Shown here: positions 8,723 to 42,422 of the stretch, in pieces
Numbering within the stretch: position 1 is the first letter of the stretch
Layout: each line of letters starts with the position of its first letter
Origin: Clostridia bacterium
GTDB taxonomy: Bacteria; Bacillota; Clostridia; TANB77; CAG-508
Length of the DNA stretch: 64,000 nt
Assembly: GCA_900759015.1 (NCBI GenBank)
Contig: CAAEUE010000003.1
Span: 7,122 to 71,121, forward strand
Reading direction: 5' to 3'
The notes under the pieces: generated by a model
What the model was told of the DNA's origin: nothing
What the model saw: only the letters and a program-made list of their open reading frames with translations
The model's database searches: none
Position numbers and translations under genes: made by a program

Positions 8723-8814
8723 TATTACCTCCTCTATAATGTTAGACAAAATAAAGTCGAATTTCGTTACAAGAAATAAAGATTTTAAATTTAATAATAT
8801 AATTTTAATTAATA

Positions 8815-30852: not shown

Positions 30853-31013
30853 ATAAAGAGTTATAAATATATTTATTAAATAATGGAAATTGTAATTTAG
30901 TATTTGGGGGATATTAAAACGTTATATAATTTGTATTAACATAAGATTTATGATATAATATTAATTGTAACAAGCAGTAGATTCACCCATTAAATGGGAG
31001 AAAGGGCACAATA

Positions 31014-31247: not shown

Positions 31248-31406
31248 ATGCCATGTCCAAAAACAACTCCATACGGAGTTGTTTTTGGATTATATAAAGC
31301 ATTTGGGTATAGAACAATATTTATTCATGTTGACATAATGAAAAGATATGATATAATATTTACCGTAACAAGCAGTAGATTCAGCCGAAAGGCAGAAAGG
31401 GACACT

Positions 31407-34283: not shown

Positions 34284-35408
34284 ATGGGGATTGAATCAAA
34301 TTTAAGAAAAGAAGGAATCAAAGTTACAGAAGAACTTGATAAAATAAAAGTTAATACTATTGCAAAGAATGTTGCTCAAAAGATTGTGGCTGCATTCCCT
34401 GAACTTGACTTTAAACTAGGTGAAGTATTTATAAAACTTTCTCAATTGAAGATGTATTATGCAGAAGTGCCAAAGGGGTTTTCAGAAGCTAATTACTTTT
34501 ACAAAAACACTTCAATTTATTTTAACCAAGAAGTCCCTATAGATAAAATAGAAAATTATGCTGTTCATGAATGTATTCATTACTTACAAGAAAGAAAAGA
34601 TAAAGCAGGATTTTTATTAAGGCTAGGCTTATGTGACTTAACACAATATAAAGTTCATGGTTTAGCACTAAATGAAGCAGCAGTACAGTATGCAACTGCT
34701 AAAGCAACAAAAGAACCAAAAGATAATGTGAAATATTATGGAATTTCTTTCGATACAATTAGTCCTACTTGCTATCCATTAATTTGTAATTTGATTGCAC
34801 AAATGGCCTATGTAACGGGGGAAAAAATTCTTTTTGATAGTACCTTTAATAGCAATAATAATTTTAAAGAAGCTTTTATAAAGAAGACTTCTGAAGAAGC
34901 ATTTTATACATTAGAAAAAAATTTTGATAAGATATTAAAGCTTGAAGAAGATTTATTAAAATTAAATAATAAAATGGAACTTTCAGATAATTTGAATTCA
35001 GGACTTAATAAAAAGAGACTTAAAATAAAGAATAATATTCAAAGTACATTTATGGAATCTCAAAATTTAATAATAACTTCTTACTTTGATACAGCTTTTG
35101 AGAAAATTACTAACTTAGAAGAAGTAGAAAATTACAGAAGATCATTATACAATTACAAAGATTTAGTTGGATATGTTGATGGAATAGATACATTTAATGA
35201 ATATTATATTAAAACTATGAATAAATTAGAGAATAAATATAATGAACTAGAAAGTGGAGCTATAGATAAAAATATAGAACAAGAGAAGGCTGGCTTACCA
35301 ATTGAAAGAAAAAATAAATTTCAAGTAATATGGCAAACAATAAAGAATTTCTTATTTAAATCAGGAGATGAATATAGAAAAGAAACTCAGCAGGAGATAA
35401 ATAAATAA
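34284..35408 (+). CDS. unknown-function protein with HExxH motif (HECIHYLQE) and C-terminal coiled-coil
   Basis: AAGGAG RBS; single HEXXH zincin-like motif. Confidence 0.45.
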   Translation: MGIESNLRKEGIKVTEELDKIKVNTIAKNVAQKIVAAFPELDFKLGEVFIKLSQLKMYYAEVPKGFSEANYFYKNTSIYFNQEVPIDKIENYAVHECIHYLQERKDKAGFLLRLGLCDLTQYKVHGLALNEAAVQYATAKATKEPKDNVKYYGISFDTISPTCYPLICNLIAQMAYVTGEKILFDSTFNSNNNFKEAFIKKTSEEAFYTLEKNFDKILKLEEDLLKLNNKMELSDNLNSGLNKKRLKIKNNIQSTFMESQNLIITSYFDTAFEKITNLEEVENYRRSLYNYKDLVGYVDGIDTFNEYYIKTMNKLENKYNELESGAIDKNIEQEKAGLPIERKNKFQVIWQTIKNFLFKSGDEYRKETQQEINK

Positions 35409-36913: not shown

Positions 36914-37411
36914 ATGGTAGAAGAGCAAAAAATATTATCAATTATAGATTATATAAATCAAAATAATATTTGTGATAAATATTTAAATAAATTGAAGAAT
37001 ATAATCGGTAATAATGCAGAAATAATATCAAGAGTAAAAGAAAAACAATCTGCAATAGACAAAATGAAAATAAGACATTTTGTTTCTGCAAATCAAATAA
37101 GTGATTTTATTGGATATATGATAATTACAGATACAGTAGAAGATGTTTATAAAATAAAAAATAGAATAGAAAATAACTTGGGAAATTGTTTAGAGGAAGA
37201 TTATATAAAAAATCCAAAGAATGGTTATAAAAGTATACATTTAAACTATTTAGTAGAAAAAAATATTCCTCTAGAGATTCAAATAAAAACAAAGCAAATG
37301 AAGGCAGCACAAGATATAGTGCATGATAAAATATATAAGAATTTTAATTTATCAGAAGAATTAAGAAATGTGCTTAGCAATTTAGTGTTTTTAAAAGTTC
37401 TAAAGCAATAA
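36914..37411 (+). CDS. small RelA/SpoT-synthetase-domain protein (SAS-like, 165 aa)
   Basis: Synthetase-fold motifs SRVKEKQSAIDKMKIR, DFIGYMIIT, GYKSIHLNY and EIQIKTKQM...H. Confidence 0.55.
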   Translation: MVEEQKILSIIDYINQNNICDKYLNKLKNIIGNNAEIISRVKEKQSAIDKMKIRHFVSANQISDFIGYMIITDTVEDVYKIKNRIENNLGNCLEEDYIKNPKNGYKSIHLNYLVEKNIPLEIQIKTKQMKAAQDIVHDKIYKNFNLSEELRNVLSNLVFLKVLKQ

Positions 37412-37423
37412 AGATTTTAATCT

Positions 37424-37834
37424 TTATTGCTTTTTCATTTTAGGTTTTGCAATTAAAGAAGCTAAATAACCAAAGAATATTGCAGCAGCAATTCCACCTG
37501 CTGCATTTTTTATACCACCAGTAAAAGCACCAAGAAGCCCAGAAGTTTTAACGCCTTCTATTGCACCTTTTGCTAAATTGTATCCAAAACCAGTAAGAGG
37601 AACAGTTGCACCAGCGCCTGCAAAATCAACTAAATATTTATATAAACCAAGTCCACCTAAAATAACACCAGCAGTTACAAAAGTAACTAATATTCTAGCA
37701 GAAGTTAGTTTAGTTTTATCAATTAAAATTTGTCCTATTACACATATTAATCCACCAACGACAAAAGCTTTTAAAAGTGTAGACCATTCAAAAACAGCTG
37801 ACCAATCAATATTACTCATGAAATCTCCTCCCAA
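37424..37834 (-). CDS. spoVAEb: stage V sporulation protein AEb
   Basis: SpoVAC/SpoVAEb family signature VGGLICVIGQIL...DFAGAGATVPLTGFG. Confidence 0.75.
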   Translation of the reverse strand: MGGDFMSNIDWSAVFEWSTLLKAFVVGGLICVIGQILIDKTKLTSARILVTFVTAGVILGGLGLYKYLVDFAGAGATVPLTGFGYNLAKGAIEGVKTSGLLGAFTGGIKNAAGGIAAAIFFGYLASLIAKPKMKKQ

Positions 37835-37885
37835 GGATTTAGAAACGTTCTTTTTATAGAGATTTCAAAGAACGTTTCTTAATCT
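37835..37885. repeat. two degenerate REP halves in inverted orientation forming a 13-bp-stem hairpin (AGAAACGTTCTTT / AAAGAACGTTTCT)
   Basis: GGATTTAGAAACGTTC... and GATTTCAAAGAACGTTTCTTAATC; lies between spoVAEb and the divergent 660-aa gene. Confidence 0.5.
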
Positions 37886-37998
37886 CGAATTATTTTATAC
37901 TAATATTTTGTGCACGAATTGATAATTTTATACAGTTTTGGAATATTGAATGCTAGAAAAAGTTATGATAAAATTATTAAAAAATTGATTTTTAAAGG

Positions 37999-39981
37999 AT
38001 GCAAAAGATGATAGAAAGTGAAGTTTTTAAGAGGTATCAATTACCAATAGAAGAATTACGACCAAAAATAATTGATACAATAGTAGAAGTTTATGGAGAA
38101 AGACACAGGGAGCAAATAGAAGATAGATTAAATAATTTGTATATAAATGCATATGTTACAGCCGAGGATGTTCAAAATGATTATAATACAAAAAATAGCC
38201 ATTTTGTATCAATGCTATCAGTAAAATTTTTACGAAATATAGGAATAGAGGTTTCAAAAGAAACAGAAGATGAAGTGTATAAAAGAGGAACTTTTGCTTT
38301 GACAGAGGAACATAAAGATGTTTTAAAACAATATTTCGGAACTTCTAATTATACTGACTATGGAAAAATTTTTTCATTTGATGATGAATTAATAAATTCG
38401 GAAAACGAATATAAAAATAAAATGCATAAATCCAATAGATGTGAAATTTTAAAAGCTATGGGTTTAGAAATTTCACCAGAAAACTATGATGAAGTTATAC
38501 AAACTAAGCAAGGTCAAGAATGCTTAAATAGGGCAATAAATATATACAAAGTAGCTACAGACTGTAGAGGCGATTTTGATAAATTTCAAGAAGAAAATAA
38601 GGATTATATAGAATATTTAGAAAAAGTAAAAAAATATGAACAAGAATTAAAATTTAAATACATGAAGCAATATGCAACACAAATAGTGCCTTATTGTGAT
38701 AAAGAACTTGGAGCTAAAATAGAAGAGGCATTAGCTAAAAATTATACTTCAGATTATAGATTTACACAAGATGTAGATAAAGATGGAATATATATTGCAA
38801 GATATGGAGATCCGTTAATTTTTTCTTTTTCAGATGATGCAGAAGAAAAATTAGCTAAAGATAACTTTGAGTCTATGCGAGTAAAATCAGCTAGAATAAA
38901 ATATTTTAAAGCCAAAGGATTAGATTTAGGTAATAATTATGAGGATTATGAAAATAGCGAGGAAGCAAAAAAATTATTGCCTGACAAAGAACTGGTAGAA
39001 ACATTATATAAAATAAAAAAAGACGATGACAAAGAAATGGATATGGAGTTCTTTTTAAATACTGGAAATTACGAATCTTGTAAAAAGAATATATTATCAC
39101 AAGGTATAAAAATACAAGATAGTTTTAGTAAAGAATTTGTCGAAAATGGTGTAACATGTATAGTTCCGAATGTTAGACAAGATGACAATGGAAATTACCA
39201 ACTGTTTAATATAGTTCATCTTCCATTAGTTAAAATTTTAAGGGATTATAAAGATGTGCAGATAATACATGAATTATTACATACTGTAGAATCTAGCATG
39301 AAACAACTTTCGAAAGATGAAATATATTTTAAATTTGGTTTTGATGAAGCAGTAGAACCGATATGCCATAATGAAGATGAACTAATTGTAGACGATAGGA
39401 AAAGTGATCCAAATGAGCCAAGAAGAATATATGAATTATTATCTGAAAATTTACATCAAGAATTAGCAATTGAAGTTACCAGAAAACTACATGAAAAAGG
39501 AATATATTTGTATGGAGACCAAAAACTGGCTAGAGAAACTGGAGCGACTACGTACGAGCGTTATAATGTTATAACTATAAATTTTCAAAAAAAATATAGA
39601 GAAGAAATAATTGATGGAATGATGGAACCTACTAGAGATGGAATAATAGATGTTGTTGGAAAAGAAAATTTTGAAAATTTAAATTCAACTGTAAATGAAT
39701 ATGCTGGGTTACCATATTATAATATGATGGATGACGTTTTGGCTAAAAGAGACACAGACCTAACAAGGAAAAGGATAGAACTTGCTAATAGAGGTAAACA
39801 AATAGTAGTAGAAGACATGAAAGCATATGAACAAACTAGAGAAAAATATAGAATATCTGTCCAAAAAATAGGTAAAACAACAGTACATAGGTCGCTACAA
39901 AATAAAAGAAATGCAATGCAAGCACTTACATATGATGAGACTAAAGTTTTGGAAGGAGAACAATTAAGAAATGAACAATAA
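37999..39981 (+). CDS. unknown-function protein (660 aa) with HExxH motif (IIHELLHTVE)
   Basis: Long ORF, AAAGGATG start context, zincin-like HELLH. Confidence 0.5.
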   Translation: MQKMIESEVFKRYQLPIEELRPKIIDTIVEVYGERHREQIEDRLNNLYINAYVTAEDVQNDYNTKNSHFVSMLSVKFLRNIGIEVSKETEDEVYKRGTFALTEEHKDVLKQYFGTSNYTDYGKIFSFDDELINSENEYKNKMHKSNRCEILKAMGLEISPENYDEVIQTKQGQECLNRAINIYKVATDCRGDFDKFQEENKDYIEYLEKVKKYEQELKFKYMKQYATQIVPYCDKELGAKIEEALAKNYTSDYRFTQDVDKDGIYIARYGDPLIFSFSDDAEEKLAKDNFESMRVKSARIKYFKAKGLDLGNNYEDYENSEEAKKLLPDKELVETLYKIKKDDDKEMDMEFFLNTGNYESCKKNILSQGIKIQDSFSKEFVENGVTCIVPNVRQDDNGNYQLFNIVHLPLVKILRDYKDVQIIHELLHTVESSMKQLSKDEIYFKFGFDEAVEPICHNEDELIVDDRKSDPNEPRRIYELLSENLHQELAIEVTRKLHEKGIYLYGDQKLARETGATTYERYNVITINFQKKYREEIIDGMMEPTRDGIIDVVGKENFENLNSTVNEYAGLPYYNMMDDVLAKRDTDLTRKRIELANRGKQIVVEDMKAYEQTREKYRISVQKIGKTTVHRSLQNKRNAMQALTYDETKVLEGEQLRNEQ

Positions 39982-40405
39982 TTATTCTAAAGCATATGTA
40001 GAAGTATTAGAAATTTTAAAATATATTCCAAAAGAAGACTTAAAAAAAATTCCAAAAGATATAATATTTACTTTAGAAAAATGTGCAGATAAGGAGCATA
40101 TCTTTAGAATTAATAAAAGTATTCCTTTTGAAGAACAGAATTTAATGGAAGAAACAAAAGATATACTAGCAAACTTTTTTAGAGATTATTGGGCAACTGA
40201 TTTTCAAAGAGAGCAAATTTTGATAAAAGAAAAACAAGATGAGTATGAATTAGAAGAGAATAAGATAAAAATTAATTATGATGAAGTATTTAAGAATAAA
40301 AAGACAGAAGAAAAACCAAAAACAGAATTAACAGTACTACCAGAAAAAAAGTGGTATGAGAAGTTTTTGGATTATATAAAAAAAGTATTTAAATTAAAAA
40401 AATAG
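39971..40405 (+). CDS. unknown-function charged/coiled protein (144 aa), overlapping the upstream gene
   Basis: ATG overlaps the stop of the 660-aa gene by 11 nt. Confidence 0.4.
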   Translation: MNNNYSKAYVEVLEILKYIPKEDLKKIPKDIIFTLEKCADKEHIFRINKSIPFEEQNLMEETKDILANFFRDYWATDFQREQILIKEKQDEYELEENKIKINYDEVFKNKKTEEKPKTELTVLPEKKWYEKFLDYIKKVFKLKK

Positions 40406-40483
40406 AGATTTTGTTTAAACAAAATCTCTATTTTTAAGAATTAGCACCTAAGCTAATAGATTTATTACAAATACATATTAAGG

Positions 40484-40569
40484 AAAAAAGAATGTCTCTA
40501 AATCACGAGTGCAAAAAAAGAATGTTCCTAAATACAGAGGAAAAAAAGAAACGTTCCTCAATCCTTAAT
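40484..40569 (+). repeat. tandem triplet of ~28-bp units derived from the REP right half (AAAAAAGAA-t/c-GTTCCT-c/a-AAT-c/a-C...)
   Basis: Units at 40484-40512, 40513-40540 and 40541-40569, ending 3 nt before the spoVAD stop. Confidence 0.55.
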
Positions 40570-40571
40570 AA

Positions 40572-41576
40572 TTAAATTTCTATGCTAACTGCGTGTGCGA
40601 TTCCAGGAATGCTTTCACCTTGCTGAGTAGAAGTAGAATTCATTAAAGCTCCAGTTGCAATTAATAATATTTTTTTGTATTTTTTAGTTTGTAACATATT
40701 AAATAAATAACCAGAAAATACTGTACCACAACAAGCGCATCCACTTCCACCAGCATGTGTATCTTGGGTCGCCTTGTCAAAAATTAAAACTCCACAATCA
40801 TTGTAGTTAGATTTTATATTGAATCCTTTAGTCTGTGCAAGTTCAATTAATATTTCTTTACCAACATGTCCAAGGTCACCTGTTATAATTGCATCATAAT
40901 AACTTGGCTTTCTACCAGTATCACTAAAATGTGTAATTAAAGTATCTAAAGCAGCAGGAGCCATCGCAGCACCCATATTATTACCATCTTTAATTCCCAT
41001 ATCTATAATTCTACCAGGAGTAAAATGTGTTACAAAAGGTCCTGTTCCAGCAGAAGATAAAATTGCAGCACCAGAGCCAGTAACCGTCCATTGTGAAGAT
41101 TGAGGTCTCTGGTTTCCAAGTTCCAATGGAAATCTAAATTGTTTTTCTGCACTACAAAAATGACTAGAAGCAGCACAAATAACATTATCAGCAGCACCAC
41201 CATCAATAAATACAGAACCTAATCCTAAACCTTCAACAAAAGTAGAACAAGCACCAAAAATTCCTATAAATGGAATGTTTGAATCTCTAAGACCAAAACT
41301 AGAAGAAATACATTGGTTTAATAAATCACCAGCAAAACAATAATCTATGCTAGAAATTGGAAGATTAGATTTTTTTACCGCAGAATAAACAGTTTCTTTT
41401 AATATTTTACTTTCGGCTTTTTCCCAAGTCTTTTCTCCCCAGAATTCATCTTCTAAACATTTATCAAAATATTTAGCAAGTGGACCTTCTGCTTCTTTTG
41501 GACCAACAATACTTGCTGTATCTAAAATAGTAGGAGGCTTAGTAAATTTAATAGTTTGTTTCCCTAATTTTTCCAA
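40572..41576 (-). CDS. spoVAD: stage V sporulation protein AD
   Basis: 334 aa with thiolase/KAS-III-like fold. Confidence 0.75.
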   Translation of the reverse strand: MEKLGKQTIKFTKPPTILDTASIVGPKEAEGPLAKYFDKCLEDEFWGEKTWEKAESKILKETVYSAVKKSNLPISSIDYCFAGDLLNQCISSSFGLRDSNIPFIGIFGACSTFVEGLGLGSVFIDGGAADNVICAASSHFCSAEKQFRFPLELGNQRPQSSQWTVTGSGAAILSSAGTGPFVTHFTPGRIIDMGIKDGNNMGAAMAPAALDTLITHFSDTGRKPSYYDAIITGDLGHVGKEILIELAQTKGFNIKSNYNDCGVLIFDKATQDTHAGGSGCACCGTVFSGYLFNMLQTKKYKKILLIATGALMNSTSTQQGESIPGIAHAVSIEI

Positions 41577-41588
41577 AAAATCATCTCC

Positions 41589-42053
41589 TTATGCTAAAGT
41601 AATACCTTGTGTATTAAAAATAAGATATATGATACCAACAATAATAGAACTACAAATTCCAAAAACTAATACAGGCCCAGCAATAGTAAACATTTTGCTA
41701 CCAACACCCATAACATAACCTTCAGATTTAAATTCTATTGAAGGTGCAACAATAGAGTTAGCAAATCCGGTAATAGGAACTAAAGAACCTGCACCTGCGA
41801 ATTTGCCTATTTTATTAAACATATTTAAACCTGTTAAAAAGGCGCTAATAGCTATTAAGATAATAGAAACGATTGTACCAGAAGTTGCTTCGTCTAAACC
41901 ACGAGCTTTACATATAAGAGAGATAATTTGACCAAAAGTACAAATTAAACCTCCAACCCAAAATGCATTAAAACAATTTTTAAAAATCGGCGAATTAGGA
42001 GATTTTTTATCTACATATTCCTGATATTTTTTTTGAGTTTCTATAGGTTGCAT
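41589..42053 (-). CDS. spoVAC: stage V sporulation protein AC
   Basis: SpoVAC family (VGGLICTFGQI...GAGSLVPITGFAN). Confidence 0.75.
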   Translation of the reverse strand: MQPIETQKKYQEYVDKKSPNSPIFKNCFNAFWVGGLICTFGQIISLICKARGLDEATSGTIVSIILIAISAFLTGLNMFNKIGKFAGAGSLVPITGFANSIVAPSIEFKSEGYVMGVGSKMFTIAGPVLVFGICSSIIVGIIYLIFNTQGITLA

Positions 42054-42066
42054 ACAATACTCCTTT

Positions 42067-42321
42067 CTACATAGAAGAATGGTCTATATAAAATGTTAAC
42101 TCTATTTCTGCAAAATATTCAGAAATTTTACCATCCTGAATACTTGCTGTTTGATCAATTACCTTTACTTCTGATATATAATTAATTGTTTTTGAAGCTT
42201 CACTAATAGTTTGCACAATTGCATCTTTCCAAGAAATGTTAGAAGAACCTCTAACACGAATATGTTTTTCTACAGTCATTACACTACCTCCTATAAATAA
42301 AATTAATAATATTTTTTCCAT
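42067..42321 (-). CDS. dodecin-family small protein; true start probably the internal Met (MTVEKHIRV...)
   Basis: Dodecin-like motifs HIRVRGSS..SWKDA...ASKTI.NI..V.V......I.DGKI.EY...IELTF. Confidence 0.4.
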   Translation of the reverse strand: MEKILLILFIGGSVMTVEKHIRVRGSSNISWKDAIVQTISEASKTINYISEVKVIDQTASIQDGKISEYFAEIELTFYIDHSSM

Positions 42322-42395
42322 TTAATTTAATTTTATACAGATGGATGATATAATATAAAAAAGAATTGGGAGGGACGCTCCTTTTTTCCTTTTTC

Positions 42396-42422
42396 GGGAT
42401 TTGGGGACGTTCCTTAAATCCC
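42396..42422 (+). repeat. REP copy: GGGATTTGGGGACGTTCCTTAAATCCC, preceded by a partial unit (GGGAGGGACGCTCC)
   Basis: Exact consensus. Confidence 0.8.

Follow-up and report, generated by a model that had tools for sequence, protein, structure and literature searches.

How a sporulation operon can be cut in two and apparently still be expressed is the question raised by a locus in the genome of a Clostridia bacterium (GenBank assembly GCA_900759015.1). The locus lies in a 64,000-nt stretch of contig CAAEUE010000003.1 (positions 7,122 to 71,121, forward strand), hereafter the window, and contains spoVAC, spoVAD and spoVAEb, whose products form the minimal dipicolinic acid (DPA) channel that loads DPA into spores and releases it at germination (PMC9186386). 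A preliminary description of the window, made from its letters alone, had reported that spoVAC and spoVAD are parted from spoVAEb by 2.7 kb of opposite-strand DNA holding two genes, here called the cargo. This layout was confirmed, with all five open reading frames (ORFs) found at the positions given there. On the evidence of gene order in relatives, the cargo is a single insertion, made in or before the common ancestor of its carriers and inherited vertically since. The genes concerned are the following.

37424..37834, minus strand: spoVAEb (PF03862, E=1.7e-37; TIGR02839, 154 bits against a cutoff of 131)
37999..39981, plus strand: large cargo gene, a 660-aa ORF, predicted zinc-metallopeptidase-like HExxH..E protein
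39971..40405, plus strand: small cargo gene, 144 aa, helical protein with an RDYWAT motif
40572..41576, minus strand: spoVAD (PF07451, E=1.3e-152)
41589..42053, minus strand: spoVAC (TIGR02838, 178 bits against a cutoff of 164)
42067..42279, minus strand: dodecin gene, 70 aa, the first gene of the operon (PF07311; orthologues also 70 aa)

The evidence for an insertion comes from synteny. Loci were gathered by a degenerate-pattern scan of species-representative genomes together with exact-protein look-ups, and are cited below by handle (L001 and so on). An identical gene order was found at 13 loci, representing at least 12 species-level metagenome-assembled genomes (MAGs): infC-rpmI-rplT, then in some loci a small RelA/SpoT-like gene, then spoVAEb on the minus strand, the large and small cargo genes on the plus strand, spoVAD, spoVAC and the dodecin gene on the minus strand, and finally rsmB on the plus strand. 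The carriers are all MAGs of uncultured gut Clostridium or Clostridia. Over their loci, amino acid identity is 88-99% for SpoVAD and 88-97% for SpoVAEb, as against 38-87% for the large cargo protein. In three outgroups (L022, L023 and L024), whose SpoVAD is 81-84% identical, the genes dodecin-spoVAC-spoVAD-spoVAEb are contiguous and without cargo; spoVAD and spoVAEb are 15-40 bp apart, and the operon occupies the same neighbourhood, convergent with rplT-rpmI-infC. The dodecin gene stands directly 5' of spoVAC in the clade and the outgroups alike. The contiguity of the operon in the outgroups argues that the four-gene arrangement is ancestral and that the cargo was inserted into it, and the earlier suggestion of an insertion into a once-contiguous spoVA operon is borne out. 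The preliminary description had also set against its own proposal the case in which related genomes share the arrangement with conserved cargo genes of known housekeeping function. The shared arrangement and the conserved cargo were indeed found, but no known housekeeping function for the cargo was.

The insertion shows no sign of being recent. Synonymous divergence (dS) of the cargo in the closest pairs is 0.28-0.29, compared with 0.25-0.5 for the flanking genes, and being no higher than that of the flanks it gives no sign of recent transfer. Recent horizontal arrival was rejected on this ground and because the guanine-plus-cytosine (GC) content of the cargo is similar to that of its surroundings. 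An inversion in place of an insertion was rejected as well, given that the spoVA genes retain their ancestral order and strand.

Orthologues of SpoVAC, SpoVAD and SpoVAEb are all present, each above its model cutoff, and no second set of spoVA genes occurs within the 64-kb window. Start positions were corrected for three genes from ribosome-binding sites and homologue lengths. The spoVAEb ORF reaches a TTG at 37834, and its start is most likely the ATG at 37819, which gives 131 aa; a GGAGG stands 7 nt 5' of this ATG, and orthologues are called at 131 aa. For the large cargo gene the most likely start is the ATG at 38008 (657 aa), and for the dodecin gene it is position 42279 (70 aa), the listed dodecin ORF (to 42321) overrunning the operon promoter. 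The end of the large cargo ORF overlaps the start of the small one by 11 nt. No Rfam family matched between 30000 and 48000 at the gathering threshold.

The spoVA genes no longer form one contiguous unit, as the 2.7-kb insert and a likely terminator hairpin lie between spoVAD and spoVAEb. Very probably, then, spoVAEb has lost co-transcription with spoVAC and spoVAD, which the preliminary description had raised as a possibility. The elements that would govern expression of the divided operon are these.

42310..42338, minus strand: predicted forespore-type (sigma-F-like) promoter of dodecin-spoVAC-spoVAD, GTATA-N14-GGAAAAAATA
37904..37933, minus strand: predicted forespore-type (sigma-G/F-like) promoter of spoVAEb, GTATA-N18-CAAAATA
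37946..37974, plus strand: predicted sigma-A-type extended -10 promoter of the cargo pair, TTGAAT-17 nt-TG-n-TAAAAT
40398..40435, strand not assigned: 17-bp hairpin with an A-run and a T-run, likely a bidirectional terminator for the cargo and spoVAD

The element upstream of the dodecin gene fits the consensus of forespore sigma-F/G promoters. It is conserved in the clade, its outgroup equivalent reads G[TC]ATA-N15-GGAAAATATA, and clade and outgroups together follow the pattern G[TC]ATA-N14/15-GGAAAA.ATA. In the predicted promoter of spoVAEb, GTATA and CAAA(A)TA are invariant at the 13 loci and stand 17-18 nt apart, while the flanking parts of the intergenic spacer diverge. The GTATA...CAAAATA pattern has 3 matches in the window against 0.75 expected, and no such element is found at the spoVAD-spoVAEb junctions of L022-L024. 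Back to back with it in the divergent spacer stands the predicted cargo promoter, a block kept at all 13 loci, in which CAATAT and TTTTAnCAT (minus strand) are invariant. The spoVA genes themselves evolve under strong purifying selection, with ratios of nonsynonymous to synonymous divergence (dN/dS) of 0.01 for spoVAD, 0.03 for spoVAC and 0.05 for spoVAEb (range of the spoVA genes, 0.01-0.06). It can be argued from the conserved promoter and this selection that expression of spoVAEb was restored; from both we infer that spoVAEb gained a forespore promoter of its own and that its product is still made in the right compartment. An altered channel stoichiometry, which the preliminary description had foreseen, is still conceivable, but it is weakened by the presence of the spoVAEb promoter at 13 of 13 loci and by the strong conservation of the protein (88-97% amino acid identity).

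What the cargo encodes is best approached through its larger product. The HELLH motif noticed at the outset is present in the large protein as H424-E425-L-L-H428 and is invariant in the family. The lack of a recognisable family for the pair likewise stands: neither protein matches Pfam, NCBIfam, PADLOC or PHROGs, and PDB sequence-profile searches for remote homologues returned nothing significant for either cargo family. A word-indexed search found relatives of the large protein in 118 clusters, all unnamed, and a full profile search extended these to 823 cluster representatives (E <=1e-3), of which 264 score at E <=1e-30; most are 570-670 aa long. Pfam scans of eight distant family members gave nothing above cutoff, and members of the family are unnamed in any source. 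No relatives of the large protein were found in IMG/VR, in the INPHARED phages or among PLSDB plasmids. In an alignment of 127 representatives, H424, E425, H428, E431, G447 and E483 are invariant (127/127), while D419, R476, E479 and Y519 are nearly so.

An AlphaFold2 (AF2) model of the large protein, built from 26 sequences, is confident (predicted local distance difference test, pLDDT, 90; predicted template modelling score, pTM, 0.83). It consists of a helical N-domain of ~370 aa followed by strands at 387-394 and 400-408 and by the HExxH on a helix at 415-430, after which come three further strands and a helix at 479-499 bearing E483. The placement of HExxH on an alpha-helix is as expected for clan MA, and the candidates for a downstream Glu ligand are E483, on helix 479-499, and E431, both invariant. 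A Foldseek search of the model against the PDB gave nothing with E below 1. The protein has no transmembrane or hydrophobic segment. Taken together, these features suggest that the large protein is most likely a gluzincin-type zinc peptidase, soluble and cytoplasmic, that belongs to a new family, with zinc binding and peptidase activity being what we infer from motif and model. The closest known kind of protein is the gluzincin metallopeptidases (MEROPS clan MA(E)), especially dipeptidyl peptidase III (DPP III, family M49) and the M1 aminopeptidases. DPP III is characterized by a hexapeptide, HExxGH, and a second motif, EExR(K)AE(D), whereas in the large protein and its relatives the first motif is a pentapeptide, HE[LN]xH, and the second block takes the form RxxE[LI][LF][SN]E; having HExxH and not HExxGH, it does not belong to M49.

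A second protein with a motif of this kind is encoded nearby, a 374-aa HECIH protein at 34284-35408 (plus strand), between infC and a leuS-like tRNA synthetase gene, the latter seen at the orthologous position in L001 and L003. It is highly conserved, being 74-95% identical in relatives where found, and matches nothing in Pfam, NCBIfam, PADLOC or PHROGs. That it might be a paralogue of the large cargo protein was rejected by BLASTP and hhalign (probability 6%).

The family of the small cargo protein comprises 529 clusters, in which Y9, E11, E14, L16, K26, P28 and an R-D-Y-W-A-T block are invariant. Its model is helical with a charged linker (pLDDT 80), and no structural relative of the model was found. 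The C-terminal amphipathic helix at 127-140 has the highest hydrophobic moment of the protein (0.74). Large and small proteins co-occur in six other genomic contexts. Away from spoVA, the pair is found by an alaS-like gene and by genes for HIT, DUF1294, rhodanese and lepA (L011, L014, L015 and L019), by phosphonate genes (L021), and by hemN-like and NUDIX genes (L013). Genes for more remote relatives of the small protein stand behind unrelated genes, in the vicinity of a serine recombinase, of RhuM or, on a viral contig, of a Zot-like ATPase; the one small-protein match in IMG/VR adjoins a Zot-like ATPase. A C-terminal tail of ~45 aa in the large protein, with a Y.I....IGK.T motif and low model confidence, is confined to the subfamily with the small downstream partner, and a similar Y.I....IGK.T motif ends an unrelated protein 5' of a distant small-protein homologue. 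The tail may be a docking site for the small protein, which we offer as a lead and not as a result.

The wider family of the large protein has a different small neighbour, here called Up, of ~95-116 aa, which in most members is encoded immediately 5' of the large gene and often overlaps its start. Up was detected in 12 of 22 metagenome loci, in a scan that used a narrower family alignment, the very broad one being too divergent, and also in L013, L018, L020 and L021 (L013:5632-5976, L018:3962-4309, L020:3-251 and L021:5677-6015; also L034-L050). The small downstream protein is absent from the 22 metagenome loci. Conversely, Up is absent from the window and its clade, where only the downstream 144-aa partner is found. 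Members of the wider family stand mostly among housekeeping genes, including several for DNA repair: ligA, addAB, recG, a UvrD-type helicase gene and mfd.

The cargo is under purifying selection: in unsaturated comparisons dN/dS amounts to 0.22-0.27 in the large gene and 0.16-0.26 in the small one, or 5-20 times the spoVA values and about twice the value of rsmB. Its content changes between lineages. At L001:7992-12007 and L002:1445-5460 the large gene is tandemly duplicated, with paralogues 42% and 56% identical to that of the window; at L016:6001-6719 it carries an internal deletion; at L012:6001-7925 it is frameshifted and the small gene is lost; and L013 also has cargo frameshifts. The cargo is seen to turn over inside a stable spoVA frame. 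Decay together with relaxed selection argues that the cargo is functional in most lineages but dispensable, and that an accessory role fits better than one in core sporulation.

What that accessory role might be allows more than one reading. The main live alternative is that the cargo is a conflict-type module, similar to toxin-antitoxin or anti-phage systems, with the large protein as a protease effector and the small protein as its regulator or antidote. Fast evolution speaks for it (38-87% amino acid identity against 88-99% in the flanks, with dN/dS of 0.22-0.27 in the large gene), as do the variable copy number and decay seen in L001, L002, L016, L012 and L013, the tight overlap within the gene pairs, the multiple genomic positions of the cargo, and the distant homologues of the small protein near serine recombinase, RhuM and the Zot-like ATPase of a viral contig. 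However, no PADLOC model matches, and the large protein is without relatives in the IMG/VR, phage and plasmid collections. Its wider family is set mostly among housekeeping genes, not in defence islands, and dN/dS is well below 1. On balance, this alternative appears rather unlikely. A broader proposal, which is speculative and which we would not expect to hold in full, is that the large protein and its small partners (the 144-aa protein and Up, ~105 aa) constitute an as yet undescribed, regulated zinc-protease system of the cytoplasm that would be widespread among uncultured gut clostridia. Such a system may be a conflict or quality-control module in which the fast-evolving N-domain sets target specificity; in the clade of the window, the control region shared with spoVAEb could tie its expression to the assembly of the DPA channel or allow the system to interfere with that assembly.

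It is improbable that the cargo is instead a sporulation or germination factor working alongside SpoVA, such as a protease whose target is SpoVAD or the DPA channel. The position of the pair between spoVAD and spoVAEb is stable across at least 12 species, and cargo and spoVAEb share a divergent control region, as such a role would have it; yet the pair also occurs in unrelated housekeeping contexts, including after ligA, recG or a UvrD-type helicase gene, its promoter looks sigma-A-type and not sporulation-type, it decays in L012 and L016, and its dN/dS exceeds that of the spoVA genes by the factor given above. A direct link of the cargo to sporulation is thus unlikely.

The preliminary description had gone further and attributed the insertion itself to repetitive extragenic palindromic (REP) elements, which would have mobilised or captured the cargo and left the border repeats as scars. 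A REP-like family is indeed present, in the form of a 27-nt imperfect palindrome, GGGATTTGGGGACGTTCCTTAAATCCC, with 8 copies in the window at <=3 mismatches and 0 in 100 shuffles. The repeats next to the operon are as follows.

42396..42422, plus strand: intact REP-like hairpin, matching the 27-mer consensus with 0 mismatches, in the interval from the operon promoter to rsmB
37835..37885, strand not assigned: REP-derived inverted pair in the 5' untranslated region (UTR) of spoVAEb, with perfect 13-bp arms at 37841-37853 and 37867-37879
40484..40569, minus strand: tandem array of three degenerate REP half-units 3' of spoVAD (period 30, 2.7 copies at 40484-40563)

That the border repeats derive from REPs was upheld: both align to the 5' two-thirds of the 27-mer, and L004 and L005 have intact copies at the orthologous sites. 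The minus-strand RNA of the inverted pair is predicted to form a hairpin (-20.5 kcal/mol, z = -3.6) whose end lies 5 nt before the spoVAEb Shine-Dalgarno sequence. The eight copies are at 1960, 22284, 26718, 29030, 42396, 53136, 54140 and 54590, and degenerate REP-like copies lie near 8810, 28360 and 57177. The inner stem of the 27-mer is G-U paired in one orientation, which makes its folding as RNA strand-dependent.

In favour of a REP-associated insertion, the window and its closest relatives have REP-derived sequence at each border, and the sole 10-mers common to the two borders of the window are the REP core. The comparison of carriers decides against it. In an alignment of the spacers of the 13 loci, border REPs occur only in the window, L004, L005, L006 and L008, where the pair forms an insert of 65-75 bp that parts the spoVAEb promoter from the ribosome-binding site of that gene and REPs are found in the convergent spacer as well. 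Seven relatives (L003, L007, L010, L017, L009, L001 and L016) carry the same cargo insertion free of REPs at both borders; in REP-free relatives the spacer from the small gene to spoVAD is a single hairpin of ~35 bp. Direct or inverted repeats common to both borders are absent from these relatives, with no shared 8-mers or longer words in L009, L017 and L010, and a search of their borders for target-site duplications and terminal repeats found none. The locus has no transposase ORF, the ORFs of the window not having been screened specifically for Y1_Tnp or REP-associated tyrosine transposase (RAYT). Neither border repeats nor a target-site duplication nor a transposase is therefore common to all carriers. 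Many other intergenic spacers of the window hold REPs (8 intact), so that any new spacer is a likely target. The REP-free carriers argue that REPs colonised the new spacers afterwards and do not explain the insertion, and an origin of the split by REP activity is very improbable. An assembly artefact, with the split produced by chimeric joining of metagenomic sequence, deserves next to no credence even though the window appears to stem from an uncultured organism, all relatives found being metagenome-assembled or uncultured-isolate records, because the same gene order recurs in more than 12 independent assemblies from different studies and samples, which rules such a contig out.

The account that we regard as probable is therefore one of an old, vertically inherited insertion, a split operon with two forespore units, a cargo with sigma-A-like expression and a later arrival of REPs. 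Its observed base is the anatomy of the locus, its synteny, its conservation and the selection acting on it. In the ancestor of this clade of uncultured low-GC gut clostridia, the four genes dodecin-spoVAC-spoVAD-spoVAEb would have made up one forespore operon, facing infC-rpmI-rplT convergently. An accessory module of two genes, oriented the other way, would then have inserted after spoVAD and ahead of spoVAEb and been passed on vertically. Since that time dodecin-spoVAC-spoVAD would be read from the old forespore-type promoter and end at the bidirectional hairpin shared with the cargo, and spoVAEb would be transcribed from a forespore-type promoter of its own, inside the divergent spacer of 165 bp that arose with the insertion. 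With two promoters of the forespore type, the forespore should still produce each of the three channel subunits. The cargo would be read from the sigma-A-like promoter back to back with that of spoVAEb. Its large protein is predicted to place the HExxH helix and a downstream Glu, as third ligand, behind a helical N-domain that is large and evolves fast. For the small protein, the most likely role is that of binding partner or regulator of the large one, and it possibly docks on the subfamily-specific C-terminal tail, bringing its amphipathic helix with it. In one subclade, REP-like hairpins would later have colonised both new spacers.

Several points weigh against this account. Both predicted promoters are consensus matches in AT-rich DNA, backed by conservation only. 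The metal-binding Glu could be 431, 479 or 483. The decay of the cargo in L012, L013 and L016 shows that it is dispensable. Finally, the conserved neighbour of the wider family is Up, which is absent here, and this argues that the pair in the window is not the core module of the family.

Other features near the operon were observed alongside these. One sublineage shares a 1-nt insertion in spoVAD, at codon 178/179 and outside any homopolymer: it reads ACT-C-GGACC, as against ACA-GGACC in the window. The frameshifted genes are L001:12471-13473, L002:5924-6926, L009:3903-4905 and L016:7227-8229; the corresponding site in the window is at ~41043, and there the gene is intact. Both halves of the frameshifted spoVAD are under very strong purifying selection (dN/dS 0.00-0.04 at dS 0.14-0.34, in three species-level MAGs). 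Rather than a dead gene, this suggests either a split protein that is functional or a programmed +1 frameshift at the CGG codon; CGG is probably a rare codon at this GC content. Between rplT and spoVAEb, at 36914-37411 (plus strand), lies a gene for a RelA_SpoT-domain protein of 165 aa that resembles small alarmone synthetases. It is present in some relatives only and absent from L003, L007, L010 and the outgroups, which points to a second, later insertion beside the operon. Dodecin is a flavin-binding protein, and its gene is the first cistron behind the conserved sigma-F-like promoter in the clade and in L022-L024, which implies that it is expressed in the forespore with the DPA channel genes. 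Further away, two 40-nt direct repeats at 30949-30988 and 31347-31386, which begin TATGATATAAT, are 90% identical and 398 nt apart.

The locus is a natural case of a divided spoVA operon, apparently mended through a new forespore-type promoter, and it provides a clean system for asking how the balance of subunits is held once co-transcription is lost. The large cargo protein represents an unannotated family of ~820 clusters at 50% identity with a fully conserved zincin-type active-site signature. Its confident predicted fold, which has no close structural relative, makes it a reasonable target for biochemistry. Current understanding is not overturned by these observations, as the splitting of operons by insertion and new HExxH families are already known kinds of finding.

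Comparison with known systems places each part of the locus. The repeats resemble REPs and bacterial interspersed mosaic elements (BIMEs) in being short imperfect palindromes (27 nt), multi-copy and in both orientations, with the inspected copies lying between genes and several window copies in convergent spacers or 5' UTRs; unlike them, the border copies of the window are degenerate half-units and not the agent of an insertion. The cargo shares with overlapping toxin-antitoxin and defence pairs the overlap of a small protein with a large enzyme, fast evolution, variable copy number and multiple sites, whereas it matches no known defence model, sits in a locus without mobile-element genes and has mostly housekeeping neighbours. 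The operon itself is to be compared with the tricistronic spoVAC-spoVAD-spoVAE operon of clostridia, as in C. difficile, where CD0773-0775 is sigma-G dependent, and in C. botulinum and C. sporogenes (PMC3789822, PMC5083711). The locus agrees with it in the three genes, in their order and common strand, and in having upstream a forespore-type promoter, which is here predicted. In contrast to that operon, a dodecin gene leads, and spoVAEb stands apart, beyond 2.7 kb of opposite-strand DNA, with a conserved predicted forespore-type promoter of its own.

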